A stretch of 63,970 bases of DNA, counting the filler, from Reclinomonas americana ATCC 50394 (Eukaryota), in NCBI GenBank assembly GCA_048213135.1. It is 15 parts of 15 records of this genome, joined end to end, with 100 filler letters (N's around TTAATTAATTAA, not from the genome) between each part and the next. Parts side by side here need not be neighbours in the genome. Positions count along the whole stretch, not along the records: positions 1 to 8,839 come from AFZH01023397.1; positions 8,940 to 25,164 come from AFZH01023399.1; positions 25,265 to 27,635 come from AFZH01023402.1; positions 27,736 to 32,058 come from AFZH01023403.1; positions 32,159 to 36,324 come from AFZH01023404.1; positions 36,425 to 39,578 come from AFZH01023405.1; positions 39,679 to 41,817 come from AFZH01023406.1; positions 41,918 to 47,876 come from AFZH01023408.1; 7 more parts are not named here. One strand, given 5' to 3'. Numbering within the stretch: position 1 is the stretch's first letter; every line of letters begins with the position of its first letter. A program made the translations under genes and the position numbers. Shown piece by piece: positions 5,044-62,300 of this stretch. Below the pieces are notes generated by a model that searched no databases, had not been told where the DNA came from, and saw only the letters and a program-made list of their open reading frames with translations.

Positions 5044-7906
5044 TCACGACTCGTCGGCAGGTGGTGGCTTCTTCACAGCAGCCTCCTCGGCTTGCTTCTT
5101 CAACATGGGATGCAGGAACCACAATGGTGCTGGAGGCTTCGACTTGCCGCGCAAAAAGCTGGGCACGGGTTCGGAGGGGCCTATGATGATGCGACAGAGA
5201 GTGACGAACAGAAAGACGCCACTAAAGTCGTCGCTCGGCACGCACCGATCGTTTTGCTGGGCGGATTTCGCACACTGGCTCCGCGCGATCGGCGGCGTCG
5301 CATGTTCGCCGTCTGATCACCTTCCAGCTCGTCTTCACACAACTCGTAGAGCACTTCACGCACGAATTCCCGCATCTGCGCTGCATATTGATGCACTTTG
5401 TGCGTCGGAGGATTGTAGACTTGCGCGTTATTCAGCATGAGCAGCAGCGAGTGCGCCAGCTGTAGCGTTGTGTGAATCTCCTGCGTGCGGAGCTGTGAGT
5501 CATAATCGCCGTGCGTTGCGCGGACGCGAAGCACGGCACGCAACTCCCGACTCCACACGCTCCGCTATTGTCGGCAAGTCGAGCGGACACAAAACAACGT
5601 CCGAGTAGTCCGATGGCATGTCACGCGGAGCACGCGTCTCGAACAGGTCAGCCATCTGGAAGTCGCGAATTCTGCGCAGCGCACACATCAGCAAGCTCTT
5701 GTCGGTTTGCCGATCGGCACTGCGAGCCAGGTAGTCCAACAGCTGCAGTGGCGGCGGCATGGTAGAAGTGTCTACACTTGCCGCGGTGGCGGCCGGTGGC
5801 GGTGGTGGTGGTGGTAGTGGAGGCGCAGCGACGGTTGCTGGTGATGGCTGTGCGGTGGAGCGATATCGTGATGTGAGTTATCAGCGCACAACAGTAGGAT
5901 GTGCGAGCGTAAGTGGACAGAGAACCGGTGATGGGTTGCGCGATGAGCCTCGTGACCGGCTGTTGCTAGGTGCCGGAGCAGGAGCCGGTGGCGCAGCAGC
6001 AGTCTCCATGAGGTGGATCGTTGGTGACGGAGTCGCCGCGCGTGATGAAGAGCGGCGAGAGGAACGACGCTGTGTGCGCAGCTGATGATGTTAAATGATG
6101 CTTCTTTTGCAGCACACACAGATAAGGAGGAGAAACACACACTCGGCGCACCTCTGGCCGCGCAGTCTTGCCCTGCTGCAACAGAAACGATGAGCATTCC
6201 ACACAACAGCAAATTACTAACAGCAGCAGCAGCAGCAGCGCCTACCTTGCCTGCCGCCGCCGACGATGCCTCTCTACGCGCACAACAACAAAAAATCAGC
6301 AAGAATAGTGAGGACGACAACTCCACATTATCGTCGACGACTGCAAGTGCATGTGTCACGCAACTCGACAGTCGGCGTGCATGGTCGCGACTCGGTGCGC
6401 CGAGTCTTGAGCGGAGGCGGTGCCACAATGTCGGCGCTCCGAGTCTCCACTCCCCCGCTCTGATCCGTCTCCATGGGTGCTGGTGTCGGTGTGTCGGTGC
6501 CGCTCGCCATCGAAGACGAATCGTCGGCCGGACGCTTCCGCGAGGCTCCCACCAGAAGCTCTGGTGTCGGCAACCCATTTCCTTCCTCCTCCTCCTCCTC
6601 CTCCTTCACGCACTCGACAATCGGCAAGGACAGCACTGGCGCGGGTGGTGGTGGCGGCGGTGGCGGTGGCGGTGGTGGTGGTGGCGACGAGGAAAGTACG
6701 GGGGCGGGCGACGGAGCACCAACATCGGCGGCACCAGCAGCAGGCAACGGCGACGGTTCCTGCAGTGTGAAGGCAGCGGGCGTGGCAGGTCGCGGGGCGG
6801 ATACGGCCACCTGCACTGCCGTCGGCGGACTCGGTTCAATCTCCGCCGCTCCCGTCTCTTCCGTCTCCATTGCCACCACGCTGGCCGCTTCCGCATGCAG
6901 CTCCTCCGGCGCCGCCACGACCTTGACAGCAGCTTGCTCGCTGGCCTCCTCGTCTTTCATCTGCACTTCCGGCGCTCCGTCCTGTGCCGCCGCCTCCTCC
7001 ACCACACTCACCACCTGCTGCTCTTCACCTCCTTCGACTTCCTCCTCGCCCTCGCCCTCCTCCTCCTCTGCCTCCTCGTCATCCTCCTCCTCCTCGTCCT
7101 CTTCTTCTTCTTCTTCTTCTTCCTCACCCATATCACCCGCGCCACCACCAAACGCCGAGAACGACGGCAACGCAATGCCGTGCTCCTCGGCCAACTTGCG
7201 CACAATCGGCGCTGCACTCGGGTATTCGGTGATCGACAGGCGCTTCACCAGGCCCTCAATCTGCCGCATGCACGCCACAACACCAGGCGTCATCTCCTCC
7301 GCAGTCTTTTGCACCTCCAGAAACCTGCGCCGACTTGAGAGAGCGGGCACGTATACAAACAAAGGCAAGACACGCACCGTTCCAACACTCGCACGCCATC
7401 CATCAGCTCCTTCAGATACAACATGCACTCCATGCGCACTCGCTCGCGGAACTCACCAGCTGCCAACACGCCACCCTTCAGCTCAGTCACCACACAGTGC
7501 CATGCAGCAACTCATCTTAACATCACCTTGCGACAAGTGCAGCGCAGGCATCGGAATCCGCAACCCGTGCTTCTCCGCATACATGATCTCGCATGCCTTT
7601 TTTTGTTGCAATGCACGCGCATTCAGCATGCATGCATGCGCGTGTGCGTCGCGCCTCTCTCTCTTTGACACACACCTTTGCATTTGGCGCCACATCGCCT
7701 GACTCTGGTGGAGGCACGCCTGTTGGCGGATACAAGCGCTCGGCCAGGCCCACCGACACTGCCTCCCAGTCGACTTGTCCCTCTGCATCCTCGCCCTCCT
7801 CCTCTTGCGCAGCCACAGCCACACGCAGATGCAGCTCGGCCAGCTCGGCCAGAAACAAGTGCTGCAGACTGTGGCTGACGTGCGTGTGCGGAAGCACGTC
7901 GCTCAT
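5044..7906 (-). CDS. Bromodomain protein, BRD8-like (N-terminal SANT-like region, acidic/Pro linker, C-terminal bromodomain), multi-exon
   Basis: ADLFETRAPRDMPSDYSDVVLCPLDLPTIAERVESG spliced to EIHTTLQLAHSLLLMLNNAQVYNPP gives the bromodomain ZA loop and conserved Asn; N-terminal DWEAVS motif. Confidence 0.7.
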
Positions 7907-7963
7907 TGTTGCGCGCGTGGACGTGTGATTGGAACCGCAGGACACGCTCTTCCTTCGGTGACC

Positions 7964-8839
7964 ATGCGCGACGGGTGCAGCTTTGCCGCGTTTGCCATTG
8001 TGCTGGCCGTGCTCGTGTTCATCGGCTACCGCATGCTCTCATCGCCGGCGTCACCGGCCGCTATCAAAGTACCTCCACCTTCGGCGGGAAAGAAGCCTGT
8101 GGCCTCGTCCATGGCCAGCTCGCGCAAGTCGACTGCGTTGCGTGCGGTGCGTGTGCGGCACCCGGAGGCGCCACGTGGCGGATTCGCGTTTGAGGGCACG
8201 GTGACTGACGTGGCCGATGGCGACACGGTGACGGTGATGGTGGATGCGCTGACGTTGCCGGAGCACCTGCTGCGTGCGGCGCAGCGGATTGTGCTCAACG
8301 CTGGCGACGCCGATGGGTACTTGCTGAAGCTGGCGGCGGAGGAGCTGGAGCAGAATGGGTTCAAGACGAGTGGGCGCCTGGCCAAGCCGCTGCCGCTGCA
8401 GGGGCGTGCGAGTGAGGACGATGATGGAACACCGTCGTGGTCGCAGTTTGTAAAGATCACCGCGCGGATTCGCTTCAAGGGCGTCGATGCACCCGAGGCG
8501 AAGCAGGCGGCGGGCGCGCAGAGCACGGCGGCGCTGCGGTCGCTGTTGCCGGTCGGTCGGCGTGTGGCGGTGGTGGTGTACTCGCGGGATCAGTATGGGC
8601 GGCAGGTCGGCGACGTGTACGTGTCGGTCGGCAACGACGACAGTGGCGACTCGGCGTGCGTGCAGTCGCTGATGCTGCGCGATGGGTGGGTGTGGCACTA
8701 CACGCAGTACGACAGTCGGGCCGAGTTCGCCAAGTTGCAGGAGGAGGCGCGGCAGGCGAAGCGTGGCTTGTGGGGCGCCGACAGCCATCCCACTCCCCCG
8801 TGGCAGTGGCGCAAGGAGAATGGCGTCGGCGGTGGTGCC
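7964..8839 (+). CDS. Staphylococcal nuclease (TNase)-like protein with N-terminal membrane anchor (Lcl3-like); stop lost in gap
   Basis: DGDT, RIRFKGVDAPE, DQYGR, ARQAKRGLW and PPWQWRK motifs; hydrophobic FAAFAIVLAVLVFIG. Confidence 0.9.
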
Positions 8840-8939
8840 NNNNNNNNNNNNNNNNNNNNNNNNNNNNNNNNNNNNNNNNNNNNTTAATTAATTAANNNNN
8901 NNNNNNNNNNNNNNNNNNNNNNNNNNNNNNNNNNNNNNN

Positions 8940-10439
8940 TCGAGGCAGTACTTGGAGAATGCAGAGGCGAAGCGCCAGCAGGCGGCACTTGCGCGTCAGC
9001 GGAGCGAAGAGGAAATGTGTACCTTCTCTCCTGCGGTCACCGCCAAGGCCAAGGGCGTGGCTCCTCGATACCTGTTGAATTCGAGTGGCAAGAAGGTACA
9101 ATAACAACGCAGTCTGGGCGATTTGGTGTCGGATGCTCACACTATTGTTTCAGCAGTTGCGCGAGGACATGCCGGTGTTTGGATTTGTGCCGGGTGCAGT
9201 GCCTCCGCCGCAGCCTCCGGCTTCCAACAATGTCGCCCGCTCCGCACCCACCACACCCACTGTGACACCAAAGCGCATGGTCTGTAGGAGTCGTTCGCGT
9301 GGGAATTCTTGCTGCACATGCTCATCGGTGTGGATTTGCACGCGCACAGCGCCGCGGCTCCAGTGGCAAATCGAGAACGCGTACATCTCTTTCCTCCGTT
9401 CACACTGGCGATCCGCTGCTGCTTCTCACCGCCAGCAAGAGCATGTGTTGCGTCAATGTGCCGTCCTTTCTTCGCCGTTCTCACTGACTCACTATTGTCG
9501 TGAGACAGTCTCGGTCAAGGAGTGTGCGCACTGGTTCAACGAGTGGAAGGTGCTGACAAACGCAAGCGACGAGGCTGGACCGCACACTGTGCGCGCCATT
9601 GACCACGCCGAGGTGCGTTTTCGATAGTGCGGGGTTCAACCAGCGTGGCAGTGCGCTCGGACTTACAAATGTCTGTTCGCAGTTTGCCATCCTCATGCAG
9701 CGCTCGTTCCGTGTGCGCAACGACAAGGTGCTGGTATCGCTATTCCACGCCTTCCCACTGACCGAGGATGGCACACTGGAATTTGTCGACTTTATCATTG
9801 TGTTGTCGTGGCTCGTCAAGGGCAGCGACGTGCAGCGCTCTCAGAGTTGCGACCTTTGCTGCTGCTCGGTCGCCATCTTCATGGTCACTCACGTTGACAC
9901 CACTTCACCCCATGCGCAGCCGTGTTCGACGCCCTCTCCAACCGCAAGAACTCGTTCAGTCGCAACGATGCCTTCTTTACGCTGTGCGAACTGATTGAGG
10001 ACTACCGCCCAGGTTGGGAAGCTGTGACTCTGCTTGCGAGGTCCGCGCAGTGCGATTGACGCTTGCTTGTGTGCAGAGGAACTTCTCTTTAGCGTGCGTC
10101 GCACATTCCACTTTTTCAAGTGCGCGACGGCCAACGTGATCACGTGGGATGAATTCGTGGCCAGCTATCGTGCCGAGCCGGTGCTGATTCGCCTGTTTTG
10201 TCATCCGGTGCGTGTTTTTCCTCTTCTTCTGCCAACAGTAATCGCTTGCGGTGTGGCTCACATGGGCGGCGCAGTTCTCCGAGGTGGATGTCATCCCCAG
10301 TGAGAAGGAGCGCATCTTCAAGGCAGTGCTGGAGGAGCGCGATCTGCGGCGCACCATTGATGATCTGTCGGACGAGGTGCGCGCAGAACTCGGCCTTGGA
10401 CCGGTGGTGCAGGCCACAACTGAACTGGAGTCCGTGTAA
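8940..10439 (+). CDS. Multi-exon protein with neuronal-calcium-sensor-like degenerate EF hands, 5' partial
   Basis: SLFHAFPLTEDGTLEFVDFIIVLSWLVKGS and NVITWDEFV resemble recoverin/NCS EF-hand pairs. Confidence 0.6.
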
Positions 10440-10747: not shown

Positions 10748-12428
10748 TTACGCATCCACCGGCAGGCCAAGACGCTTGCGGATCCACGAGCATTGCTCAC
10801 GGAGCGCACTCTCGGCCTCCGGGAACTTGCCGACCCACATGTGGAAGCAGTGGAACAAGCCGCCGTACACCTTCAGCGTCGAGTCAATGCCCGTCTCCAG
10901 CGCCTTGCGGTGCAGCAGCGTGGAGTCGTCCAGCAGGATTTCGTGATCGCCGGCGTGGATCAGCATGGCAGGGAAGTGCTCGATTGAGCCATACAGCGGC
11001 GAGTAACGCGGGTTCTTGATATCGGGGTCACCGCCGGTCCAGTCGCTCCAGTCCATCTCGATATCTTCGGGGAAAATCGGGTCGATGCCGTAGCGCGAGG
11101 TGCGGCTTTCGAGATCACGCGAAAAGTCCATCCACGGCGACATGAGAGCCAGCCCGTTCGGCATCAGCATCGAAGGCTCCGCACCGCGACGCAGGCAGTC
11201 GTCGCGCAATGCTGCACACAAGTGCAGTGACAACTGCGCACCAGCCGAGTCACCTGCGAGGTGCAACAAAGGGTGAGGGCCATGACGAGACGACGAGTCC
11301 ATTCAATGAAGGACGACTCACCAGCATACACCAAATTGGATGGCGAGAAGCCAAAGTGTTGCACCAGGTACTTGTGCACGTGCAGGATGTAACTGGCAAT
11401 CTCCGGCAGCGTGTGCTCCGGCACCAACGGGTACTCGACCGAGAACACTCTGAGGCGACTGAGAATAGCCAGGCTGGTGGACAGGTGGCGGTAAATGTCG
11501 GTGTGGCCTGTGCGTGAGGGAGAGCAAAGGTGAGACGAACAAGGCGCAGCGACAAGAAGTGACCACGATCCTCCTCTCACACTAACCGACAGTGTAGGCA
11601 CCACCATGGCAAAACACAATAATCTTGTCGGGATCGTCGACAACATCGGGCGTCACAAACTCGCCAATCGGCGTCGCCGGGAAGTCGGCCTCGTCGTCCT
11701 CATTAAACTCGAGCACGCGAGCCGGGCGCACTGGCGGCGGTGGACCCTCGTGCGGCGGCAGCGGCAAGAAGCGCCACTTGACCGAAACCTTTTCAAAAGC
11801 GCACGGTCCCAGAGGAGTGGTGCCGAAGAATCCAGTGGCGCGATCAAAGCGATGCCGACGAGCCAAGTGATCGTTCGGATGCTCCGGATCTGCAACGAGC
11901 TCAAAATATAAGCCACCAAACAACGGTGAGAGTACGTGGCGACCGGCAGGCGCAACTGGAGCCGAATCTCCTCAGCATGCGCACAGCGGCACGTGCATCC
12001 CGCGACAGCGGCGTCAACACCATGGTGGAGTGCGGCCCATACAGACCTTCCACCTCTGCAACACAAAAAGAGGGGCAATATGAGAGAATGCTCATGCCAC
12101 CGCCACCACGACAGCACCCAGCACGCCTCTCACCGTGCACCGGCACCGGCTTTTCCTGCTGGTGCAACGCACGCTCATGCGGGTGGTGGTGCTCAAAAAG
12201 AAGCTGCTGCTGCCGCTGCTGTTGTTGTTGTTGCTGCTGCTGTTGCTGCTGCTGCTGTTGCTGTCGCCGCTGATGCTCCAAGATCAGATCGCGCAAGTGC
12301 TTGTGCGTCGGGTGCTCCACCACCTGCTCCAACGAGGCCTCCATGACACTGCTCGCAGGCTCCTCCGCCTCCGCCTCCGCCGGAGCAGCCGCCGCCGCCA
12401 CACCCTCCCCATGATGCTCATCCTCCAT
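10748..12428 (-). CDS. Alpha/beta hydrolase, hormone-sensitive-lipase family, N-terminal polyQ, multi-exon
   Basis: FCHGGAY, VEYPLVPEH, GDSAG, SPWMD, EILLDDS and FHCF motifs. Confidence 0.9.
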
Positions 12429-12853
12429 CCACACATGCACCTGGAACACGGCACGCGCACCAAGTCCCCACAGCTTGCGCTTGATCAGTCGCCACCTACG
12501 ATCGACATTGCGAGAGAGAGAGAGTCAGTAATTCCGCAACGTGCGAGTCAGTGCGCGAACGATTTGCACGATTGCTGACGTCGTCGCCGACTCACAAAAA
12601 ACAACACACAAAGCATGCACGCATGGAAAAGAGTAGCAGAGAAACAGAGAGAAGGGAGAGCCAAAGAGCGTGTGTGCGCACACGTTTCGAACACAATCAA
12701 AGATGCAGAGATGCACGTCGACACCCAAGTGACCCACACCTGTCGCGCTCTCACAAACGCACTCACTTGCTCACGTACACGCAACACACTATATATCACT
12801 CCTATCTCTCCCTGTGCGTGTCTCTGTCTGCCTCACTGCAGTCAATCCACCAC

Positions 12854-13207
12854 TACTTGGTGACTGATGCAGCTGCTCGTTCACGCACACAACAACACTC
12901 ACCCATCATCTGTGACAGCGTAGGCGGTTGCCGCGGCCGCGCCAACCGCCATGGCGCCCACTCCAATCCACTTGAGCACCGAGGTCACTGATGATGAAGA
13001 GGCCGCTGAGGAGCCCGAGGATGCAGACGACGACGAGGGCGACTCGGCATCAGAGGCGTAGCGCAGATCATCGTCGTCATCAGAGTCGGCGCTGACTGCC
13101 ATCATGCGCGAGTCACCGTCGCTGTCGTCGTGCAGTTGAGAGGCGGAGTCAAGGTCGTCGTCGAGGTCGGAGCTGCTGTGCTCGTGCGCCATGAGCACGT
13201 CAGTCAT
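12854..13207 (-). CDS. Small acidic Ser/Asp-rich protein with C-terminal hydrophobic segment (hypothetical)
   Basis: ORF MTDVLM...KWIGVGAMAVGAAAATAYAV followed by a GTGAGT donor and a probable short last exon. Confidence 0.4.
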
Positions 13208-13826
13208 CTCGTCGTGCGCAGGGGGGATGTGTGGGAGTGAGTGTGTGTTTGTGTGCGAGAGCGAGGGTGCGTGTGAGGTCTGCGTTTGTGTTGTCGAAGA
13301 GAGTGAGAGCCGCCGCCAGATTTAGCTGACAATTTTCGACAGGAGTCTTGTTGTCCAACTTTGTGGCTGCTGCTTTGGGAGCTCTCATGGCCGGGGGTGC
13401 GCGGCGCTGCAGTACATGTGGTGCTGATGCTGTTTGTTGTCGTGGCGTGGTGCATGGCGATCAGTTGCAATTGCACAATCCGTTGCAAGTGTCGACGTTC
13501 GTGGCGCGTGCGTGCGTGCAGCTTGGCAACTGACGCGTGGGACCAGTGCACAAGCTGGCCTTATGCGTGAGAGACTTCAGCAGCATGTAGCGAGATCAGC
13601 AGGTCTGGGGGAACGCTGCAAGTGAGTCGACGTCGCAGTGAGTTTGCAATTGCAGGAAGCGTGCTCGGCGTGCCTGAGAGGGTGCAGCTGCATAATGTCG
13701 CGCACGTGTCTGCCAACAAAGACGCCTTGCGCAACAAGAAACAGAAACGTTCATCATCATCCGTGTCCTGCGACGTGATCACTCACTGTTTCCGCGATCG
13801 TTTCCGCTTTGCAACGAGCTCCCGCA

Positions 13827-14663
13827 ATGGCACGACGCATTCGAGTAGGCGAGGAGAACCTCATCGGCATCATCGGCGACGAGGTGAGAGACAGCGATTT
13901 CCTTGAGTGCGACAGTCGAACATTGCCACTTTTGCACACTCACTCACTCTGTGCTTCGCACGAAAGGACACGTGCACGGGCTTCCTGCTGGCGGGTGCGG
14001 GCAACGTCGACGCGCGTCGGAAGCGCAACTTCTTTGTGGTAGAACGCGGTGAGTGTGTGAGGAAAGAGAGAGAGTGTGTGTGTGAGGAACGATGACTGAT
14101 GCTCGTGTGTGTGTGAATAGATACGCCTGTGGGCGACATTGAGGAGGCATTCAAGGTGTGCACTTGAGAGAGAGAGGGGGGGGGCTGTGGTGATGGTTGA
14201 TCCTCATTGTGTGTGTGTGTGTGTGTGTGTGTTGCACACAGGATCTGACCACACGGCCCGACATTGCAGTCGTCGTCGTCAGTCAGCATGTTGCGTGTGT
14301 GTGGGTGGTGGACGAGTGAGAAGAGTCATTACACTCGCGTTCTCTGCGCGTGCTCACTCAGTTGTTGCGTTGTAGGTCGCTGAGACCATTCGCTACCTGA
14401 TCACCGAGTACGAGTTGCGTTGCTTTTTCAACACTCCTCCTCCTGCCTTCATCACCATCGCTGACTTCCTCTCTTCGTCACAGTGCACTGAGTGCGTTTT
14501 TTTCACGAAGTCGCGCTTTGCCTGCATCCCACTGCTATTCTCACTCGCCTCCCCCCGCACAGTTCCCACGGTGCTGGAGATCCCCAGCAAGGAGGCACCG
14601 TACGATCCCAACAAGGACAGCATCATGAAGCGTGTGCAGGTGCTGCTCGGCTTCAGCCAGTAA
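13827..14663 (+). CDS. ATP6V1F: V-type H+-ATPase subunit F, 7 exons including an 8-nt micro-exon
   Basis: LIGIIGDE|DTCTGFLLAGAG...NFFVV...PTVLEIPSKEAPYDPNKDSI. Confidence 0.95.
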
Positions 14664-14847: not shown

Positions 14848-15812
14848 ATGAGCACAGTGCGGATTGTGGAGGTGGTGGACGAGCGCCCAGAGGATCTGGC
14901 CAAGGCGGTGGCCTTGTTCAAGGCAAGCCTCTGCCTGTCTTCACATACACAGTATCAATGCAGAGCTCACACGGGATGCGCAGGAGTTCCTCGACACACT
15001 CAACTTCTCCGTCGACTTTCAGCACCCCGACGAGGAGCTCACCAACCCACCAGGTGAGGTGTACACACAGCATGCGCGTACAGGAGCCGCATCGCATGAT
15101 CACTCACATGCGCATCATCCATCATCATCATGCTCAGCTTGTTACGCGCAACCTCGAGGCGGCATTTGGCTCGCCTACTTGTCGGAGGAAGGCGACGAGG
15201 CGGCTGAGCCCGTGGGCGTGGTCGCACTCAAGCCCATCTGCGATGTGCCATACGTGCCCGGCGAATCGAGACCAGAATTGTTGCGCGAACGCTTGAGCGA
15301 GAGTCCACTGCAGTGTGAGCTGACTCTGTGCGTGCCCGGGCAGCACGTTGGCCGATCGCCAGACAACAACCATGTGCGAGGTGAAGCGGCTGTACACGTC
15401 GCCGAGGGCGCGTGGCCGCGGCGCCGGCAAGTTGCTGACCAAGGCGGTTCGGAGCTGTCTCCGCGCGTGACTGCTCACTCGCTGCTGCGCGTTTTAACAT
15501 GTGGCATGCGCAGGCGGTGGACGGCGCACGTGCACGAGGCTTCAAGACCGTCGTTGCGTTGTACTCCGCGCGCGTGATCGTGGAGCCACCTGCGAAGCTC
15601 ACAACACGCTATTGCAAGCGCAGGTGCTCGACACGTGCGATTACTTCCTCCCGGCCATCGCTATTTACGAGCAACTCGGGTTCAAGCAGTGTGCACCGTT
15701 GCGTGTCGTCCTCGCCAGTGGAGCGACGCACCTCGGAGACTCATCGCTGTGCAGGTACTACGAGAACCCGCTGTCGGGAGTCTTGTACTACTCACTGCCG
15801 CTGGACGAGTGA
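14848..15812 (+). CDS. GNAT family N-acetyltransferase, multi-exon
   Basis: Spliced product ALFK|EFLDTLNFSVDFQHPDEEL...CEVKRLYTSPRARGRGAGKLL...VLDT..AIAIYEQLGF...YYENP. Confidence 0.85.
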
Positions 15813-15958: not shown

Positions 15959-17194
15959 ATGAGCTCTCGTGATCGCACACTCGTCCTCTTCGACGTCGAC
16001 GGCACACTGACTCGCCCTCGTCTGGTTCGCTCCCTGCGCTCTTCTGTCAGTGTGTGTGTGTGAGCAGGCACACCATGTCTCACATCGTCTCCTTCTCCCT
16101 ACTCCCTCCTTCTCTCTCTCTTTCTCCCACGCAGCGAGTGGAGAGCAACATGTTGGAGACACTGGCCAAACTGCGCGAGGTGGCCACCATTGCCATTGTC
16201 GGTGGCTCCGACTTTGTCAAGCAGGTCGAGCAACTCGGCGACGACTGTTGCGCTCTCTCACTCTCCTCTTGTCTGTGTGTGATCGCTCTCTGTGACTGCC
16301 GGTCGCGCAGTGCTCGAGCGCTTCGACTTTGTCTTCTCAGAGAATGGACTGGTGGCGTACGAGAGCGGTCGTCTGCTGGCCAAGGAGGTGTGCGCGAGGA
16401 GGCAGCAGATATCGACAGCGCGCGCGATGAGTGAGTGACACGTGTTGGCGCAGAGCCTCAAGAGCTTCCTGGGCGAGGAGAAGATCAAGGAGTTTGTCAA
16501 CTTTTGCTTGCACTACATTGCCGATCTCGACATTCCCGTCAAGCGGTGGGTGCATCGCAGCCGACGACATACCCTCCATACACTCTCTCTCACTCTCCTC
16601 GTTCAGTGGCACCTTTGTGGAGTTCCGCAACGGCATGATCAACGTGTCGCCGATTGGTCGCAACTGCGACCAGGCGGAGCGTGAGGCGTTCAACGCCTAC
16701 GATGATGTTTCGTGCTGCTGCTGCTGCTTGTCGACGGCGTCGTGCGCATGCTGATGTTGGAGCGCAGGAGCACAAGATCCGCGAGTCGTTTGTCAAGGCG
16801 CTGCAGGAGCGCTTCCGTGAGTACAATCTGCGCTTCTCCATCGGTGGCCAGATCAGGTTAGAAAGGACTGGGTGCGACCCAATTGATCGTGTTGTCGCTC
16901 TCCCCTTACACCTCCCTCTCAGTTTCGATGTGTTCCCGGAGGGCTGGGATAAGACCTACTGCCTGCGACATGTGGCAGGTCGTGGGTTCGAGCACATTCA
17001 CTTTTTCGGCGACAAGACATCGCCGGTGCGTTGGGTGTGTGCGAAGGATGAGGTTCCACTTGTCTCTCACGTGTCTGCAGGGCGGCAACGACTACGAGAT
17101 CTACGAGGATTCGCGAACGATCGGGCACTCTGTGGCGAGTCCCGACGACACCATTCGCATTTTGAACGAGCTGTTTCTGCGCGGTAGCGAGTGA
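15959..17194 (+). CDS. PMM: Eukaryotic phosphomannomutase (HAD), 8 exons
   Basis: [55 protein letters not shown] and FFGDKT.GGND motifs. Confidence 0.97.
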
Positions 17195-17819: not shown

Positions 17820-18938
17820 TCATTTCCTGGCTCGCGCAGCTGGTCTTCCACCAAACGTGCGGGTGGCGGCCTCCGTCTTTTGCGATCCAGAGGGCACTGC
17901 CGACTTGTTCTCCTTCTCAACTTGTCCGTCACTCTCTTCTTCTTCGTCTTCTTCTTCTGCCAGCGATCGACGGTCTTTGAATTCTTCCTCGGTTGCGCCG
18001 AGTCGAATGTCGGCCTCGATGAGCTTCAATGCAAGCTCCTCAGAGGAGAGGACGTCGGCGGTACCGGTCTGATTGGTGGCACCGGCCGTCGTGGTCTTCA
18101 GCACGCCTGCGACGACTGGGTGAGTGGCAAGTGCGAAAAAAAACGCACAGGGTGGGCGTACCGAGATTCTGCTGCATGGCGGCTGCGTACACGCGGTCCA
18201 GCATGGTAACGTCTTCGATTGCTCGTTTGGCGTTGGATTCGGGCTGAATCCCTGGAATGAGAGGGCAAGGGAGAGTCCATGAGTTGAAGAAAGGAGATGC
18301 AGAGGGAACAGGAAAAGGAGGAAGAAGAGGGGGAGATGGAGGAAGAGGAGGCGGCGAGAAGAAGAGAGAGAGACAGAGAGATGGCTACAAGGTCAGAGGA
18401 GGGGTGAGTGGGAGAAGACAGACAACGAGTTGCTTTGAGGAGAAAACTGAGCACTTCCATTGCAATGCAGCTTCCCGTAACAAGAGAAGGAAGATGATCC
18501 AGCGCCTTCTCTCTCTTTCTCTTTCGGCGAGACTCACCCCACTGTCCCATATCGGCATCGGTGGGCAGACCCGCACGTTCCAACAGCCACTGCAGGCGGC
18601 GATACGAGTCGCTGAAGGCCCGACCGCAGCCCTCCAGCTGTGCTCGCTTGCGAGTGGCGATGCGCTCGCACGTCTCCTGCACCGTGGGGAGGGTTTCCTG
18701 CAGGCGGCGCACGCGTGACAGCAACTGGATCGGGTCGACCTGAGAGAGTCAAAGGAGCAGCGTGCGCATGGGTGAGAGAGAGAGAGCGACGGGCGAGACA
18801 AGTGGAAGACTCAACTGAGGCAGAATACTTGCGTGCGAACTCTGCCTCGAGTGCGTGCTGCACTGCGTCGAGATCACTCTTGGCCTTTTGCAAATGGATC
18901 TCCACGGCGCGCACCGCAGCGTCCAGTGAAGTCGCCAT
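17820..18938 (-). CDS. SKA2: Spindle and kinetochore-associated protein 2-like (3' end uncertain)
   Basis: AVEIHLQKAKSDLDAVQHALEAEF...VDPIQLLSRVRRLQ matches the Ska2 N-terminal pattern (KA.SDL..VQ..LE.EF...NP..LL.R). Confidence 0.65.
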
Positions 18939-19060: not shown

Positions 19061-19095
<35 letters not shown>

Positions 19096-19147
19096 CGCTC
19101 GCTCCTCTTTCTCCGTTCTCTCTCTCACATTCTGCGATGCGCGCAAC

Positions 19148-20227: not shown

Positions 20228-21884
20228 ATGAGTGTGACGCGTGAGGCATTCGGGTCGCAAGGCGCCGAGAAGCTCGTTCTGCGCAACAGTGCTGGCTCCG
20301 CCGAGGTGCATGTCATCACGTATGGAGCGACAGTCACCCATCTCATCGTCAATGACGAGTTGCGCGCATCGCAGAATGCGAGAGAGGGGCGAAGCGAGAG
20401 AGACAGAAGCAGGGGAAAAGAGGAGCGAGGCACTTAGAGAAGGGAAGGTGGCAGTCAGTGCTGCATGCACACGCACTCTCTCTCACACATGTTCATCTCT
20501 TGCTCCCAGTGAGGGCGAGAAGCGCGCGGATGTTGTACTTGGTTTCGACGACTTTGAAGGCGTCACCAGCGGTGAGAACCGGTACTTTGGAGTGACGTGC
20601 GGTCGATGTGCCAACCGCATTGCGCGTGCACGTTTTGCTCTCGATGGCGTCGAATATCAGCTGGCAGCAAACTTGGCCGGCAATGCTCTGCACGGCGGTG
20701 TCGAGGGCTTTGATAAGAAGCTGTGGTCGGTGGTGGATGTTGCGCAGGGCGACGAGCCCAGCGTCACTCTTGAGTATGTGTCTCCGGACGGCGAGGAGGG
20801 CTATCCGGTGAGTGGAGGGCGACAGCTTTTTCCTTACTCCTCCTCCTCCTCCTTCTCTCTTCTTGGTTTCCTCGGACTGCGTTCTTTGGGTGTTCTCACA
20901 CTCGCACAGGGCGATCTGCAAACGCGCGTTACGTACACGCTGACGAACGAGCGGGCATTGCGTATCGATATGGAGGCGGTGACGAGTCGAGCCACGGTTG
21001 TCAACCTCACCAACCACTCGTATTTCAACTTGTCGGGCCTGGAGGACGCCACAGTGCATCAGCATGTGGTCAGCATCAACGCCGACGCCTTTGTGCAGGT
21101 GGACGAGAATTTGATTCCCACTGGCGAGTTGGCGTCGGTGGAGATGTTCCCGGCCATGGATTTCCGTCGACCAAAGAAGATTGGGCAGGTTTGGCGGCGC
21201 TGAAAGAGAGAGTGTATGTGAGAGAGAGAGGGGCAGTGGGAGGCTGCAGCTCACTGTGTGTGGCCATACAGGATCTCGACTCGGTTCCACCTCGCGGGTA
21301 CGACCACTGCTACGCGCTCGATGCTCACGAGTTGGACGACGCTGTCGTGCAAGTGACGCACCCTGTCACGGGCATCGTCATGCGGATGTACACCAATCAG
21401 CCAGGCGTGCAGTTTTACACCGGCAATTTTCTAGGTGGTGGTGCACCGGCGAAGAGCACGCAGGCGGAGGGTGCCACGTATGGAGTTTCGTGTTTGACGT
21501 GCTTCGTCTTGTGTGTTCTTCTTTGTGATTCTGTTGTTGCCCAATAAGTGTCAGCTCTCCTGCTTCCGTGTTTCTGGGTTTCGTCTCTCTCTCTCTCTCT
21601 CTCTCTTTGCTGTTGTCCACGGTTCGTGGAGCGTCTTCATCCACGCCCCCTTCTTGTCTCTGCCGTTGATCTTCTCAAATCCGTCCTATCCACTTCCTTC
21701 ACCTTGCCAACCCGCCCTGCTTTGCATTCTCATTTCTCCTGTCGTGCAGCCACACAGCGGATTCTGCCTCGAAGCTCAAATGTTCCCCGACGCCATCAAC
21801 CAACCAAATTTTGCGTCGCCCGTGTTGCGACCGGGCGAGACGTACCGGCACACAACCATCTACGCGTTCGACCTGATCGACTGA
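20228..21884 (+). CDS. GALM: Aldose 1-epimerase (galactose mutarotase), 5 exons
   Basis: DVVLGFD, GRCANRI, LHGG, EEGYPG, NLTNHSYFNL, GYDHCY, QPGVQFYTGN and FCLEAQ.FPDAINQP motifs. Confidence 0.97.
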
Positions 21885-21998: not shown

Positions 21999-23075
21999 TC
22001 ACTTGCCGCCCGACAGCTTGGCGTACAGGTGTGGCACATAGTCGTCCCACTCGGCCTGGAAGAAGTTGATGCCGACCGGCTTGAGGTTGTAGGTGCTCAT
22101 GATCTCGCGTGTTGACTGCTTGCCGCGACCCTCGCCCGTCAGCGGCAGCCGCTCACGGCCGTCGAACTCATCGTAGCCGTTGAGTTGCTCGAACACAATG
22201 ACCACGTAGCGATGCAGACCTGGAGGTGGCGGTGTGTAGTAGTTGGAGGCAAGAAAGCAGGCGCAGATTCGGAATGGAGAGGAGAGAAACAGCACCTGTG
22301 CCCTTGGGCGGACCGGAGCCCACATATTCGCTGATCACCTCGCCATCCTGTGCTGACTGCAGTGAGCCGGGGCGCGCACTCATCCCGAGTTTCAAAGCAC
22401 AGAGATGCAACTTCGACAGAGTGGCCCTCTCGCACGTTACCGACCCACCTGCAGATGCACACAACTCAGCGAATTGTCACGACAACTGCATGCATCCTCC
22501 TCTCTCACCAGTGATGCCACTCGCGGAACTGCATTCACATAGCGCAGAGAGTTAGCTATCAACCAGAAGAGACTCTCATGCACACACAAGCAGCGCAAGG
22601 CGACCTTGGGATCGCGGCGAGAAGGTGCGTCAGGATCCGTCATGTAGACACTGAGGAATCTCGGGTACCATGAGTGACCAGCCACACACGTACACGCACA
22701 CACAAGCTACACGTAGAGCACGTGCCTGTAGACCTTGCCATGCTCACCAGCAAAGGTGACCTGCGGAAGAGTGATCATTTGACGTCAGCGAGCGTGCAGA
22801 CAACACACACTGTGATCATGAGAGGGAATCGAAGCGACGCAACATGCGGAACGTGCTGCACTTGCGTCGGAGTCAGTGTGTTGCCGAGGTGCGCACTCAC
22901 ACCGTGGCCCCAAGACACCTACACCGGCACTGAGCGATCGCAGCTCACCGTGGTCTTCTCCACTCTCACGCTCACTCACGTTGACACCTGTGGTGGGCTC
23001 GAACGGATCAAGCACATCGATCAGCTCGTGCTCGTCGAAAGCACGCTGCACAACGTCGGCGTGGAACGATGACAT
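21999..23075 (-). CDS. Phosphatidylethanolamine-binding protein (PEBP/RKIP family), 8 exons
   Basis: GNTLTPTQV, MTDPDAPS, FREWHHW, YVGSGPPKGTGLHRYV and NFFQAEWDDYV motifs. Confidence 0.95.
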
Positions 23076-23689: not shown

Positions 23690-24819
23690 ATGTCGCACTC
23701 TCTGGCGGAAAAGTTCCATGTGCTCGGCAACTGGGGCACTCAGCTGCTCTATCGCCTGCACTTGGCCAACTCGGCATTGTCGGCGCCCGAGTCGCAACCA
23801 ACGGTGCGTATATATATATATGTGTGTGTGCAGTTGAAGTTGCGGCGATGGATGGTGGTCTGACGGAAGAAAGCGCGACACAGGTGATGCGAGAGTATCG
23901 GGATGTGACGCGCGCTGTGAGCCGCAAGTTCCCCAATATGCCGGAGCGAGAGACACTGGAGAAGGTCTGTGTGTGTATGTGTGTTTGTGTGTTTGTGTCT
24001 GTCTGTGTGTTGGTTATTGTCTTGTCTGCCTTGTCCGCGTCTTGGCAGATGGGCGCACAGTTGCACGCACACACACACACACACGCACACACCATGGGAG
24101 AGCGACAGTGCCTGCAAGGCAGTCTCTTCGGAGATTGTGCATGCTGGTCTCTTTCTCTTTCTCTCTCTCTCTCACACACACACACAGGCGCACTCGCACA
24201 CCGTAAGCGGGTTCCTGTAAGACAAACGCTGATTCAGGGATTGAGCAAGCCGCTCTCTCTTCTGTCTCTCTCTCTCTCTCATTTTCTCTCTCTTTCTTTC
24301 TCTCTCTCATGTTCTGTCTGCAGACGACTGGGTATTTGGAGCTGGAGGCGCGACAGCGGAGTGAGGATCTGCGCAAGGAACTGGAGTCGTACTATGCGTT
24401 GTTGACCGACGCGCTGGACTGGAGTTTGGCGGTGGAGGCGGTGGTGCTGGAGACGGCATCCAAGGGCGTCGACATGAATGTTGCGTTTCATGTGTGTTTC
24501 GTCTGGCTCCCCGTAGTTCATGCGCTCACATACTATTGCAGTTCGAGAACAACACGCTGTTTGTGGAGCAGTTCTTTGATCTGTTCTGCCAGCTGGCGCG
24601 CATCTTCTGCATGATCAGCATGCAGCGCAACGAGTATGTCAGCGTCGTCATGCTGTACAAGGTGCTCAATTTGACCGGTGAGCCGGAGACGGCGTTCCCA
24701 CGTCTGGCCAAGTTCCTCGAGGATTTCGAGCAGCCCCTCCTGAAGCTTCGCGCGTCGCTGGACCCCAGTATCCGACAGCTCATGAGGTACGCGATCTCTC
24801 TCTCTCTCTCTCACACACA

Positions 24820-48773: not shown

Positions 48774-50913
48774 ATGAAGAAGAAGGTTTGTTTGTTGTGG
48801 AGGTTGTTTGTGTGTGTGTGTTTTGTTTGTGTGTAAGAGTGTGTGTGCGTGAGATGGCATGTCTGTGTGCGCTTTGTCGGAGCATTTGTTGTGTGTGTTC
48901 TTGTGTGCGTTGTGTGTGTGCGTCTCTCTCGCTCTCTCTTCGCGTGCGAGTATGTGTTTCCTCCTCGTGTTTGTGTGCGTGATTTTGTGTGGCAATGTCG
49001 GTGACATGTTTTTCTCTTCGTGTTTTTCTAGGTTTTGTTGATGGGGCGGTCTGGGTCGGGCAAGACGTCGATGCGGTCGATTGTGTTTGCGAACTATGTG
49101 GGTGAGTGGGAGGAGAGAGAGTGTGTGTGTGAGTGTGTGCGGTGATTGATTGATATTTGTGATTCGGGCAGCGCGTGACACGATGCGTTTGGGAGCTACC
49201 AGTTGCGTATATTTCGTGGATGACAGGGAAAGGGAGAGTGAGAGGAGAGGGCGAGGGACGGGGGAGTGAGGGAGTGATTGTTAAGTTGAGAGAATGAGTT
49301 CCGATGCTCCGAGCGTGGCGGAATCGAGCGCAGCGAGTGGNNNNNNNNNNNNNNNNNNNNNNNNNNNNNNNNNNNNNNNNNNNNTTAATTAATTAANNNN
49401 NNNNNNNNNNNNNNNNNNNNNNNNNNNNNNNNNNNNNNNNGTGGAACAGCGAGCGACACAGCGAGTGGAACAGCGAGTGGAACAGCGAGCGACACAGCGA
49501 GTGGAACAGCGAGCGACACAGCGAGTGGAACAGCGAGCGACACAGCGAGTGGAACAGCGAGCGACACAGCAAGTGGCAGAGCGGGCACATTGCGAGTGGA
49601 GGAGAGCGAGCGCACTGCAAGTGGAGCAAGCGAGATCACAGCGAGTCGAGCAGAGCAGAGCGAGAGCAGTGAGGGGGGCTGTCAATCAATGCCATGTTGC
49701 ACTCTCGTCTCTCTTTTCTCACTTTTCCTCGCGTGCAGTCGACGTGGAGCACTCCAGCGTGCGCTTCCTCGGCAACCTCGTGTTGAATCTGTGGGATTGC
49801 GGCGGGTGCGTTAAAACCTCCTCTTCAATTTCTCCGTCATAGCCTCACGCTGCGACGACGCCACAGCCAAGACGCCTTCATGGAGAACTACCTGGAGAGC
49901 CAGCGCGACCACATCTTCAAGAACGTGGAGGTGCTGATCTACGTCTTTGACGTGGACACGAAGGAGGCTGCGGTGTGTTTGATGACGAGGAGAGAGTGGA
50001 ATGGACGTTTCACGTGTGTTCATTCTCTCTTTCTCTTCGTAGAGCGACATCCACTACTACCAGTCGTGCCTGGCCGCCATCATGCAGTACTCGCGCAACG
50101 CGCACGTCTTCTGCCTCATCCACAAGATGGATTTGGTGCCAGAGGATCGCCGTGATATCGTTGCGTGATTTTGGGCAAGCGAGCTTTCTTTCCGCGTCTA
50201 TGTAGGGCCGAATCGTATTTGCAGCACGATTGCAACATGCCACTGTCTCTTTGTGGTGTTATGCTTGACAGCGTATCCTTCCCTCGTCTATGTTGGGCCG
50301 AATCTTCTCTGTTTCTCTTTTTGGTATGCGTTGTGGCGAGCCCGTGTTGGCAGCACGATTGCACACTGTCTCTCCGCGATTTCATCCTTGACAGCGCTTT
50401 CTGCATGGCATTCTGTCTGCAACTTCAATCTATCTGCCTTTCCATGCTGGCCGTTTTGTGTCTTGTGTTCTCTCAGCAACGCATCGCTCTCATGTCGTGA
50501 GCCTATGTTAGTTAATTCACCTCAAGGCTCTCTTCTACCGTTTCGCCAAGTATTCTCATTCTTATTCTTGGCATCTACTCGTCCTCGTCCACAGCTCTTG
50601 TCTTCTGTCGCCTCCCGCTGCTTTCTCTTTCCTCTCGACCCTCGTCTCTCCCCCTCTCTCCTCTCACTGCCGTCTTCTCTACCTCTGTCTCCGCTTGTCA
50701 AACTTCTCATCTCATGCCTCTGTCACTCTCTCCGTGTGCCTTTTTCTCCATCTTTTCTCTCCCCCTATATCCCTTGCCTGTCCTCTCGTCCCTTGCTCTC
50801 TCTCTCTCTCTCTNNNNNNNNNNNNNNNNNNNNNNNNNNNNNNNNNNNNNNNNNNNNTTAATTAATTAANNNNNNNNNNNNNNNNNNNNNNNNNNNNNNN
50901 NNNNNNNNNNNNN

Positions 50914-50969
<56 letters not shown>

Positions 50970-51842
50970 CTCCTCTCTCCTCCTCTCTCTCTCCTCCTCT
51001 CTCTCTCTCTCTCTTCCCTTGCCTTCTATCCTCTCCCCTTTTTCTCCCTCTCTCTCGCCACTTCCCTCACCACTTCCCTTGTTATCCCACAGACCTTTGC
51101 GGAGAAGGAGGCCGAGCTCAAGAAGATGTCGTACCCGCTCAACATCAAGTGCTTCTCGACCAGCATTTGGGACGAGACGCTGTACAAGGCATGTTTCCCT
51201 GCTCCTTTCCATTGAGCCTCCTTCCCCCACGTGCTCACTCCTTTCCGATTGCAGGCGTGGAGCTCGATTGTGTACTCGCTCATCCCCAATGTCGACATGC
51301 TGCAGCAGCACCTGGAGCGCTTTGCGGAGGTGTGCGAGGCCGACGAGGTGGTTTTGTTTGAGAAGGCGACGTTTTTGGAGATTTCGCAATCGGTGCGGAA
51401 ACCGCACACGGATGTGCATCGATTCGAGAAGATCTCCAACATTGTCAAGCAGTTCAAGCTGAGCTGCAGGTATGGGCGGGAAAAGGAGGAGGAGGAGGAT
51501 TGAGTGTGTGTGCTGATTCCATTGGTGGGCGGCAGCAAACTGCAAGGACAGTTCCAGTCGATCGAGGTGCGCAACTCGAGGTTTGCGGCCTACATTGAGC
51601 TGTTCACCAGCAACACGTACATCATGGTCATCATGTCGGATCCCACCATTCGTTGCGTGGACTTGTTGATGGCGACTGTGTGGAGATGGTGGCGGACGTT
51701 CCTCACTCTCTTCCCCCTTTCCTTGCCCTCTCCCTTTCCCTCTGAAGAATCGGCCACCACCCACCTCAACATCCAACTGGCCCGCGTGCACTTTGAGCGC
51801 TTCATCTCAAGTACGGAGGGCCTCGGCACCGTACTCAAATAA
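48774..51842 (+). CDS. RRAGA: Rag GTPase RagA/B (Gtr1), multi-exon across two gaps
   Basis: [52 protein letters not shown] and [16 protein letters not shown]. Confidence 0.97.
49441..49572. repeat. 24-bp intronic tandem repeat (GTGGAACAGCGAGCGACACAGCGA)
   Basis: Direct reading. Confidence 0.9.
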
Positions 51843-52035
51843 GCTTCTCTCTGTGTCGTGCGCGTGTGCAGCCGTGACCTGCGCTGGCATCTCTCTCACA
51901 TTGCTGCCGCTGCTGGTCTCTCTATTCCATTGTTCTGTCTATCGAGTTTGTTGTTACGTTTGTTGAGTGAAAAGAATGAGATTTTTTAAAGCCAACAAGA
52001 ACAACAAGGACAGAGGTGGTGATGATACAGCGGTT

Positions 52036-60560: not shown

Positions 60561-60781
60561 GCATCAACAACCAATCGGAATCCGCTTGTACATAGTCACC
60601 TAATGAAGTTGTACATAACACCTAATGTGAAGACGCCATCGTACACACCCACCGCCACATGTTCATTCGGCATGCTCGTCAACGACGAGAATGGAAAAAG
60701 ACAATGAATGACAAGAGGGGAGGAAAAACCGTCCAGCAAAACAACACACACAACACACCAACAAAAACACACACAAGCACA

Positions 60782-62300
60782 TCACTTCTTGCCAGCCAAC
60801 TCCTGCGTCTTGATGTAGTTGTGGATGCGGGCGCGGTTTCCTTGCTGGATGCACTGTGTGTGTGGATGGAAAAATCCGATGGTGAGAGAGCGAATATCAG
60901 AGGAAGGGATACCTGAGTGAGCCACAAACCTCGCAAATGAGGGTGATGTTGCGAATCTCCTGCTCCTTCAGGCGGAAGTAGCTGTAGAAGACTCCGTAGT
61001 GGAACTGTTGGTCGAATGCCTCCTGCAGCAGCTGGATTTCGTAGCGAGTGAACGCATCCTCGATTGCGCCCTCCACGCCATGTGTGCTGGCCAGCACGTG
61101 CTGGTAGTCCTTCTGCGCGGGTCGAAGAGAGAAACAGAGCACAGGTATCAGTAACCACGTGGGCGCTTATTGGACTATTCTCTCGACCTTCTGCGACCAC
61201 TCCCCAGTCATACACACACTCTTTTGGCTCTCTCTCGCCCAGTATCACCCTGCTCTGCTTGGCTCCTCTCTTCCCCACCCACACTCACCAGCGTCGTGTC
61301 CAGCGCAATCATCAAGCTGCCCTCGTCACGCACATCGTCCAACAGCGTCTGGTGGCCGAACGGGTACAGCAGACCAATGGTGGGGTACAGCTCTTGCCTG
61401 CGCACACACGCAAACACACACATGGAGCACGGTATGATCAGCTCATGATCTCGCACAACGGCACATTTCGAGCGACACCCACCGATCGTCCTTTTGCAGC
61501 TCCGTCTGGGAGGCATTCAACTGTTCACCGATGTGTGAGTCTTTCTTTTTCAGGTCGCAAGCAGCAATGACGTGTCCCCTTCTCCCTTTCCCCCCTCTCT
61601 CGCTCACCGTAATGTTGATGGATCGTCGGTCGGCCTCGAACTCGAGAATCTTGCGCATCACCTCGGCAGTGGTGCCGCCAATGTCCATGCAGAAATCGAA
61701 GAAGTCCTCGAGGTAGTGCTTGTACAGCTGCTGGCGAATGACCTGCCAAACACACGCACCAAAAAAACTGTCACCACAACACGTCCCGCCCTCTCATCGC
61801 GGGGAGCAGTGGCAGTGTGCGCAACTTCCAGATTGCTCTCGGCCAAGCTGGCAAACTCAAAGCACTTCTTGGAGAAGTACTTGCCGACAGGAGTGTCGAT
61901 GAGCACAGTGTGATACAGCTCCTCTGGTGACTGCGCCAGCGAGGCAGCGCCAAGCGACTCGAACAGACCGAGCGGGTGGCACTTGGTCAGCAACTCCTCC
62001 AGTCGCCGATCGTGAATGGTGCCGGTGAGGATCAAGATCACATTGTCAATCATGTAGCCGTGCTGGATATAGTCAAGGAACGCATCCAGTGTCTGCCCCG
62101 CATTGCCGCGCAGGTAGTTGAACTCCTTGACCTGAGCACCGCCGAGTGAGCGACACTCTCCAGGGAGGAGACAACAGCAATCAGAGAATGACACAAGACC
62201 ATTGTGTCAATGGCGCGATCGCGGATAATGGACGGCGCCAGCATGCCTTCCGCTTGCAAGAATGTGCCATAGTCGGTGCCAGACAAGTGAATGCGCACGT
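60782..62300 (-). CDS. ATP6V0D: V-type H+-ATPase V0 subunit d, 5' partial, multi-exon
   Basis: HLSGTDYG, YMIDNVILILTGT, KCHPLG, LYKHYLEDF, FEADRRSINIT and QFHYGVFYSYFRLKEQEIRNI. Confidence 0.97.

Follow-up and report, generated by a model that had tools for sequence, protein, structure and literature searches.

The sequence analysed here (the window) is a stretch of 63,970 nucleotides (nt) of DNA from Reclinomonas americana ATCC 50394, and our subject is the donors, or 5' splice sites, of its short introns, about a third of which begin with GTTGCG(T)-like rather than G|GTGAGT-like sequences (the bar marks the exon-intron boundary). The window consists of 15 contigs of 1.1-16 kb joined by N44-TTAATTAATTAA-N44 spacers, located at 8840-8939, 25165-25264, 27636-27735 and 11 further places, and is not one locus. 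Its G+C content is ~56-57%, and it derives from the nucleus of a eukaryote rich in introns. The genes that could be recognised encode a PB1/UBR/UBA protein, a bromodomain protein, an alpha/beta hydrolase, V-ATPase subunit F, phosphomannomutase (PMM), SKA2, aldose 1-epimerase, Nckap1 and RagA, together with several intron-free WD40 genes and fn3 proteins. A GNAT acetyltransferase gene was identified by reading, and GNAT profiles match its exon downstream of the intron at 15280..15343. The gene for V-ATPase V0 subunit d (V0 d) was likewise first recognised by reading and then confirmed as vATP-synt_AC39. One more gene we take to be a PEBP gene from its family features. The libraries searched contain no close relative of the organism: the best protein identities are 48% for the epimerase, at most 57% for PMM and, among 1.84 billion representative sequences, 58-61% for a V0 d exon, and the protein homologue search with the Nckap1 exon gave no match. 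Metagenome loci, at most 59% identical and bacterial-looking, were not used further.

The counted set comprises 46 donors from nine genes, namely every intron that could be placed in PMM (7), the epimerase (4), PEBP (7), V-ATPase F (5), GNAT (5), RagA (8), V0 d (6), the hydrolase (2) and SKA2 (2), with junctions inferred. All nine spliced gene models are open. For PMM, the epimerase and V0 d, a boundary solver went through all intron boundary pairs around a junction, once under the GT/GC-AG rule and once free of it; the score was that of the resulting spliced peptide against 12 homologues. The best GT/GC-AG pair had the same length as the unconstrained optimum in 15 of 17 introns, with a score equal or within 4 points; the two exceptions, epimerase introns 1 and 3, touch the length and not the donor (intron 3 is 83 nt against 68 or 74 nt unconstrained).

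We divided the counted donors into class 2, that is, GTT donors without G at +5 (n=16), and class 1, the remaining 30. Class 1 takes the form G|GT(G/T)NG(T) and class 2 the form H|GTT(G/T)CG(T/C), mostly GTTGCGT. The last exon base (-1) is G in 29 of the 30 class 1 donors and in none of the 16 class 2 donors, where A, C and T are about equally frequent (Fisher p = 1.7e-11), although exon composition would predict G in about one third of them. At +3, class 1 has G19, T6, A3 and C2, and class 2 has T by definition; at +4 the counts are A13, T8, C6 and G3 against G14 and T2. Position +5 is G in 27 of 30 class 1 donors and C15, A1 in class 2. Position +6 is T in 16 of 30 class 1 donors and G in 14 of 16 class 2 donors, in which +7 is T12, C4. 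The description given by the sequence-only reading, a G displaced from +5 to +6, is formally correct, and the bimodality for which it suggested testing takes the form of a sharp split, in which -1 G goes together with +5 G and donors with +5 C and +6 G never carry -1 G.

This link between -1 G and class is not circular, because the same split holds inside the 22 GTT donors: -1 G is present in all six that carry +5 G and in none of the 16 that do not. The pattern was already present in the first 42 donors. The data demonstrate that two donor classes exist and are mutually exclusive. Both occur together in eight of the nine genes, in agreement with the earlier observation that ordinary donors are found in the same genes. 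Nor is class 2 simply class 1 with an inserted U, as follows from its preference for C and from its poor pairing with canonical U1 (see below). The share of C at class 1 +4 is 6 of 30, and at the equivalent place in class 2, +5, it is 15 of 16 (p = 1.4e-6).

Apart from the donor, both classes are ordinary short GT-AG (U2-type) introns. Intron lengths range from 55 to 265 nt with a median of 75.5 nt and are similar in both classes, as are the phases; the donors are 44 GT and 2 GC, and the 44 acceptors lying in the same contig as their donor are CAG (37), TAG (5) and AAG (2). By eye, CTCAC, CTGAC or CTCAT branch-like motifs (CTSAY) and YAG acceptors are common to the 3' ends of both classes, and a YTNAY-like branch motif and a pyrimidine-rich stretch precede the acceptor. 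Of the features of U2-type introns, complementarity of the 5' site to canonical U1 is found in class 1 and is lacking in class 2. We also considered pairing between the intron's own ends (UUGCG with CGCAG); CGCAG acceptors, counted by eye, occur in 4 of 16 class 2 and 6 of 30 class 1 introns and are not class-specific.

GTTGCG is the commonest donor hexamer (11 of 46), followed by GTGAGT with 7. A count no higher than independent positions would give had been named by the sequence-only reading as evidence against its claim; base frequencies at +3..+6 predict 1.23 occurrences. When the columns of the first 42 donors were permuted, none of 20000 trials attained the observed count. In the whole window GTTGCG is found 76 times on both strands, compared with 50.0 +/- 6.6 in 100 dinucleotide shuffles, none of which reached 76. 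On the sense strand of seven genes, GTTGCG occurs 15 times and is a donor in 11 of these places, as against 9 of 28 for GTGAG and 2 of 27 for GTGCG. GTTGCG is a specific donor signal. Our literature search did not find GTTGCG/GUUGCG as a donor motif; among the matches listed there were only primers, microRNAs and human variants, and the organism's genome paper may describe it.

GTTGCG is present at all 15 coordinates at which it had been reported as a donor (on the minus strand, the coordinate is the highest base of the motif). The further claim, that these are 15 donors in ten genes, holds for 14, which are frame-consistent and restore recognisable proteins. It fails at 14414 in V-ATPase F, which is out of frame with 14562, the only acceptor keeping the conserved C-terminus of this protein, a segment that aligns to solved chains. 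GTTGCT at 14419 is in frame and overlaps the GTTGCG of 14414, and the cited site is off by 5 nt. The related donors GTTTCG (16707 and 21485) and GTTGCA (22411, minus strand) are also present and confirmed. The homologue solver fixes donors 16247 and 61825, and 20359 less firmly; for 51652, 5544, 24480 and 50160, the flanking exons fall at adjoining reference positions. For 9846, 14290, 15280, 15553, 15698, 22843 and 49202, we rely on frame and an open spliced open reading frame (ORF), along with family features.

The alignment-based class 2 introns are the following. In PMM (plus strand), the intron at 16247..16310 (GTTGCG, 64 nt) is the best GT-AG solution against 12 homologues, equals the unconstrained best in length and leaves the spliced ORF open, and the solver also places 16707..16767 (GTTTCG, 61 nt). 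Intron 1 of the epimerase, 20359..20509 (plus strand; GTTGCG, 151 nt), is the best GT-AG pair and has a CAG acceptor; it is weaker in that the optimum found free of constraints has 154 nt, and in that a competing GC-AG solution has a slightly better score. The solver places a second one in this gene at 21485..21749 (plus strand; GTTTCG, 265 nt). In V0 d, 61743..61825 (minus strand; GTTGCG, 83 nt) has the top score and is the sole GT-AG pair in the tied top set with 12 homologues. In RagA (plus strand), 51652..51747 (GTTGCG, 96 nt, AAG acceptor) falls at 101|102 of a solved RagA chain; the read-through translation aligns to chain residues 63-101 and 102-119, and 32 intron-encoded residues are skipped. 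The GTTGCG intron at 50160..50813 leaves the contig, with its acceptor at 51092 in the next piece, preceded by a pyrimidine tract, and falls at 131|132 of the Gtr1_RagA profile. The SKA2 intron at 18740..18815 (minus strand, 76 nt) has the class 2-like donor GTTGAG, unique in having A at +5, and the SKA2 profile runs to ~36 and resumes from ~38.

The remaining class 2 introns of the counted set are placed by frame and open ORFs. They are 22761..22843 (GTTGCG, 83 nt; also family features) and 22357..22411 (GTTGCA, 55 nt; open spliced ORF) in PEBP on the minus strand and, on the plus strand, 14290..14375 (GTTGCG, 86 nt) and 14419..14562 (GTTGCT, 144 nt; a GC donor at 14422 is possible) in V-ATPase F. 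GNAT (plus strand) contributes three GTTGCG introns, 15280..15343 (64 nt; open ORF, with the GNAT profile match in the downstream exon), 15553..15623 (71 nt) and 15698..15754 (57 nt), and RagA (plus strand) one at 49202..49340, which leaves the contig and has its acceptor at 49738 in the next piece. Three GTTGCG introns stand outside the statistics because only the flagged intron was curated in their genes: 5481..5544 (minus strand, 64 nt) in the bromodomain gene, where the bromodomain profile covers 12-49 and continues from 50; 24480..24541 (plus strand, 62 nt) in Nckap1, where the profile runs to 114 and then from 115; and 9846..9919 (plus strand, 74 nt) in the EF-hand-like gene, placed by frame and ORF only.

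Few features of intron recognition are as conserved as +5 G and its pairing with U1 and U6. In this set, about one third of donors drop +5 G, use a rigid GUUGCGU and avoid exon G, in genes that also have ordinary donors.

We evaluated the pairing of donors with U1 by duplex folding in which any register, loop or bulge was allowed; the decoys were 684 GT sites in these genes that do not serve as donors. With AUACUUACCUG, the 5' end of canonical U1 as spelled in PMC4856993, class 1 duplexes average -7.42 kcal/mol, with an area under the curve (AUC) of 0.90, and class 2 duplexes -1.34 kcal/mol (AUC 0.32), compared with -2.76 kcal/mol for decoys. Conversely, a hypothetical ACGCAAC guide gives -10.05 kcal/mol for class 2 (AUC 0.95) and -4.71 kcal/mol for decoys, with an AUC of 0.55 for class 1. 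In a scan of 256 single guides with positions 4-7 varied, none was good for both classes: the best pair of AUC values was 0.82 and 0.82, and the canonical guide gave 0.89 and 0.27. These results demonstrate that class 2 misfits canonical U1 in any register, scoring below random GT sites.

We tentatively propose, at a little less than even confidence, that class 2 is read by a hypothetical second U1-like small nuclear RNA (snRNA), or a variant U1 gene, carrying ACGCAAC. It is the preference for C at +5, together with the duplex folding, that makes us favour such an RNA over ordinary U1 in a shifted or bulged register. Class 1 donors (~2/3), which depend on exon -1 G and intron +5 G, fit the canonical U1 5' end. 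At class 2 donors (~1/3), the single-stranded ACGCAAC 5' end of the putative U1-like RNA would form Watson-Crick pairs with +1..+7, after which the normal U2/U5/U6 machinery would take over. Since the two classes share branch-like motifs and YAG acceptors and alternate within genes, the difference between them should be confined to the step in which the 5' end is first recognised.

A bolder form of this idea, possible in our view but somewhat doubtful, is that two parallel 5' codes operate in one major spliceosome: canonical U1 would read G|GUNNGU, and a U1-like ACGCAAC snRNA would read H|GUUGCGU at about one third of introns, with the avoidance of -1 G preventing competition between them. This avoidance may keep canonical U1 off class 2 sites. 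It is accounted for by none of the readings that we list, and from a dedicated U1 by itself one would expect no preference for -1 G, but not its avoidance (0 of 16).

Several other points weigh against a dedicated U1-like RNA. The Rfam scan of the window detected no snRNA gene, either at the gathering score or at E <= 5. The donors GTTTCG, GTTGCA, GTTGCT and GTTGAG are used as well, and a perfect 7-bp match is found in only 7 of 16 class 2 donors, which implies that recognition tolerates mismatches, as any U1 does. The energy model applies unmodified RNA parameters to very short helices. The splice-site inference assumes the GT/GC-AG rule, and the solver is blind to boundaries sliding over identical bases. 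In addition, the sample is small and seven of its nine genes were preselected, having been flagged earlier for GTTGCG, so that the genome-wide share of GTTGCG may be below 24%; the two extra genes, the hydrolase and SKA2, provide no GTTGCG in four introns and one GTTGAG.

The sequence-only reading had described GTTGCGT as GTGCGT plus one U, recognised either in a bulged register or by a variant U1/U6 snRNA. Its second donor class stands, whereas the bulged register is disfavoured by the C preference and the duplex folding. In the bulged-register scheme, one canonical U1 would also serve class 2, through a displaced or bulged pairing like that at rare human GUU-type sites: either +1 G replaces -1 G or +3 U bulges, +6 G and +7 U pair in the manner of +5 G and +6 U, and U6 and U5 then set cleavage at GU. 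In favour of it, GTTGCGT (+1..+7) is one base from class 1 GGTGCGT (-1..+6), class 2 +6 G (14 of 16) and +7 T (12 of 16) mirror class 1 +5 G (27 of 30) and +6 T (16 of 30), and the donor GTTGAG (18815) is the displaced twin of GTGAGT. Moreover, single-bulge and shifted registers are proven experimentally in human cells (PMC4856993). We nevertheless regard this explanation as unlikely. Class 2 pairs with canonical U1 less well than decoys do even with the register free, canonical U1 would prefer A at shifted +4, where C is seen in 15 of 16, and GTTGAG occurs 52 times in the window but serves as a donor once in 46. A single non-canonical U1 (e.g. GCAAC followed by CCUG), whose contacts would lie on the intron side in class 2 and chiefly on the exon side (AG|GU) in class 1, appears less probable still. 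The guides AUAGCAACCUG (AUC 0.79/0.86) and AUAGUAACCUG (0.82/0.82) are moderate for both classes, the scarcity of +3 A (3 of 46) is odd for canonical U1, and Archamoebae are reported to have single co-evolved U1s (bioRxiv 10.1101/2022.06.08.495308). However, such a U1 keeps C opposite -1, and class 2 should then favour -1 G, which it has in 0 of 16; the canonical guide remains best for class 1 (AUC 0.89-0.90), whose +5 G (27 of 30) would be left unpaired; and no tested guide equals the dedicated guides for both classes.

Recognition of class 2 without U1 pairing, whether a protein (of U1C/LUC7 type or some other RNA-binding protein with sequence specificity) or the tri-snRNP (small nuclear ribonucleoprotein) itself makes the contact, would suit a rigid 7-nt motif with no exon consensus. 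The trade-off between exon and intron information also recalls the LUC7 classes of animals and plants (bioRxiv 10.1101/2022.12.07.519539). A contiguous specificity over 6-7 G/C-rich nt is, however, typical of nucleic-acid pairing, and we consider this route improbable. We know of no protein code of such a kind. Introner families are known from several protists, and the same 6-7 nt at many intron starts could be brought along by copies of a mobile introner-like element with its own 5' end. This is very improbable, because class 2 interiors share nothing beyond the donor: their longest common substrings average 6.4 nt (maximum 9), against 6.6 nt (maximum 13) across classes, and lengths vary from 55 to 265 nt. 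Equally improbable is the notion that errors of splicing by hand produced the whole pattern. The cited site 14414, one of 15, was indeed wrong by 5 nt, and seven sites have only frame and family features behind them. On the other hand, the position of seven GTTGCG junctions is set by an independent alignment, the nine spliced models are open and rich in family features, and GTTGCG is in excess in the window.

The reading by a second U1-like RNA may be compared with known systems. Shifted U1 register at atypical human 5' splice sites was reportedly described by Roca & Krainer in 2009. According to Tan et al. 2016 (PMC4856993), ~1.5% of human 5' splice sites use a validated non-canonical U1 register, as against 16 of 46 donors here, and 54-68 of 201,541 use the +2/+3 bulge. 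The human shifted or bulged sites resemble class 2 in their GUU start, the lack of +5 G and the G/U one place further, so that the consensus is displaced by one base. They differ in being rare and read by one canonical U1, whereas class 2 has C at +5 and avoids -1 G.

According to bioRxiv 10.1101/2022.06.08.495308, Entamoeba has GUUUGUU donors with a U1 of AACAAAC, Mastigamoeba has GUGCGC donors with a U1 of ACGUAC, and Physarum is said to carry a standard and a modified U1. The Entamoeba/Mastigamoeba type shares with class 2 the +3 U, information extending to +7 and a lineage-specific donor that canonical U1 cannot pair with. Each of those genomes, however, has a single near-universal consensus, 88-90% GUUUGU in Entamoeba; here, no one atypical consensus serves nearly all introns, and two codes divide the donors into 30 and 16 of 46, the latter with a GCG core. 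The LUC7 left- and right-handed classes (bioRxiv 10.1101/2022.12.07.519539) display a similar anticorrelation between exon-side (-1 G) and intron-side information, but in the same register, with +5 G kept and as a continuum, unlike the all-or-none, one-base displacement seen here. The strict GTGCG(T/C) donors of Mamiellales (e.g. Ostreococcus) are likewise GC-rich and lineage-specific, with +4 C and canonical U1; unlike class 2, they keep the canonical register and +5 G, and there is only one class of them.

U12-type introns also have a second rigid donor code without exon consensus and are interspersed among ordinary introns. They make up less than 1% of introns, however, and class 2 about one third, with the CTSAY motifs and YAG acceptors of class 1; the U12 donor /RTATCCTT and branch site TCCTTRAY are absent from class 2 introns as inspected by eye. 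In kind, the present case belongs with the known lineage-specific 5' splice-site codes.

If a second U1-like RNA does read class 2, U1 function would be split in a way that resembles U1 versus U11 in logic, evolved anew and at high frequency. If the pattern is genome-wide, it would offer a natural system for a spliceosome with two donor codes and for U1 duplication and specialisation, and it would bear on the separation of cleavage-site choice from first recognition. Gene finders with a single donor matrix would mis-annotate about one third of this organism's introns.

The class 1 introns located by the homologue solver are in three genes. Those of PMM (plus strand) are at 16025..16134 (ctg|GTTCGC), 16388..16453 (gag|GTGTGC), 16546..16606 (gcg|GTGGGT), 16857..16922 (cag|GTTAGA) and 17026..17080 (ccg|GTGCGT), and those of the epimerase (plus strand) at 20808..20909 (ccg|GTGAGT) and 21189..21271 (cag|GTTTGG). 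V0 d (minus strand) has five, at 62132..62199 (atg|GTCTTG), 61521..61607 (acg|GTGAGC), 61398..61482 (tcg|GTGGGT), 61113..61288 (intron 5, ctg|GTGAGT, with the acceptor at 61113 or 61110) and 60854..60929 (gag|GTTTGT).

Open spliced ORFs support the class 1 introns of four other genes. PEBP (minus strand) contains 22919..22979 (aac|GTGAGT, the only class 1 donor without -1 G), 22651..22725 (GC-AG, cag|GCACGT), 22529..22604 (aag|GTCGCC), 22449..22508 (ctg|GTGAGA) and 22220..22295 (cag|GTGCTG). On the plus strand, V-ATPase F contains 13884..13966 (gag|GTGAGA), 14049..14120 (gcg|GTGAGT) and 14156..14241 (aag|GTGTGC), and GNAT contains 15054..15137 (cag|GTGAGG) and 15447..15513 (gcg|GTTCGG). In RagA (plus strand) they are 49102..49171 (tgg|GTGAGT), 49806..49866 (cgg|GTGCGT; profile position 56, a split codon, then 58), 49973..50042 (gcg|GTGTGT, TAG acceptor; profile match), 51189..51254 (GC-AG, aag|GCATGT; profile 167|168) and 51470..51535 (cag|GTATGG). 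The two GC-AG introns, in PEBP and RagA, both read G|GCAYGT. The hydrolase, a gene not flagged earlier, has introns at 11508..11586 (tcg|GTTAGT) and 11254..11321 (ctg|GTGAGT), and SKA2 has one at 18385..18537 (ggg|GTGAGT), whose acceptor is less certain; all three are on the minus strand.

Outside the counts stand the first GNAT intron (14917-14962, plus strand), which may be either a 37-nt GT-AG (GTTCAA) or a 43-nt GC-AG (GCAAGC) intron, and a likely class 1 donor at 10013 (cag|GTTGGG). Either solution for the GNAT intron is shorter than every other intron (minimum 55 nt). Junctions were uncertain in the region 11700-13500 and in what remains of the Nckap1, EF-hand and bromodomain genes, and the introns there were left uncurated. 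A self-trained gene finder that used no donor matrix found no more than 7 of the 11 known introns and later 0 of 11 (wrong strand); it was dropped and its introns were not counted.

RagA spans three consecutive pieces of the window, 47977-49340, 49441-50813 and 50914-53548, in order and orientation. Its intron starting at 50160 exceeds 650 nt and seemingly has internal repeats, and similar translated stretches recur. The epimerase gene (20228-21881, plus strand) has bacterial-type nearest proteins at the 48% identity given above, the named ones being from Terriglobia, Acidobacteriota and Chloroflexota; despite these relatives it contains four spliceosomal introns, two of them class 2. It may represent an old gene transfer in which introns were gained later. 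An inverted duplication at 19033-19709 / 19816-20470, with arms 79-97% complementary and one tRNA gene per arm, holds a second, minus-strand epimerase exon 1 with a GTTGCG donor (19142-19147), just upstream of SKA2.

The Rfam scan of the window found one 5S rRNA gene and seven tRNA genes. The lone 5S rRNA gene (23156-23275, plus strand) is located between the PEBP and Nckap1 genes, and tRNA genes form tandem pairs with identical scores, ~535 nt apart, at 2350-2421 / 2887-2958 and 4391-4461 / 4923-4993 (minus strand). Runs of (CT)n, (GA)n or (GT)n close many contigs of the window. Degenerate heptamer arrays of CCCTCAA/CCCTCCA/CCCTAAA, telomere-like or subtelomeric in appearance, lie at the contig ends 53420-53548 and 53649-53850. 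Finally, three long, intron-free ORFs with WD40 repeats are found at 26146-27264, 29512-31365 and 34422-35648 (minus strand), unlike the small housekeeping genes, which have one intron per 70-110 coding bases.

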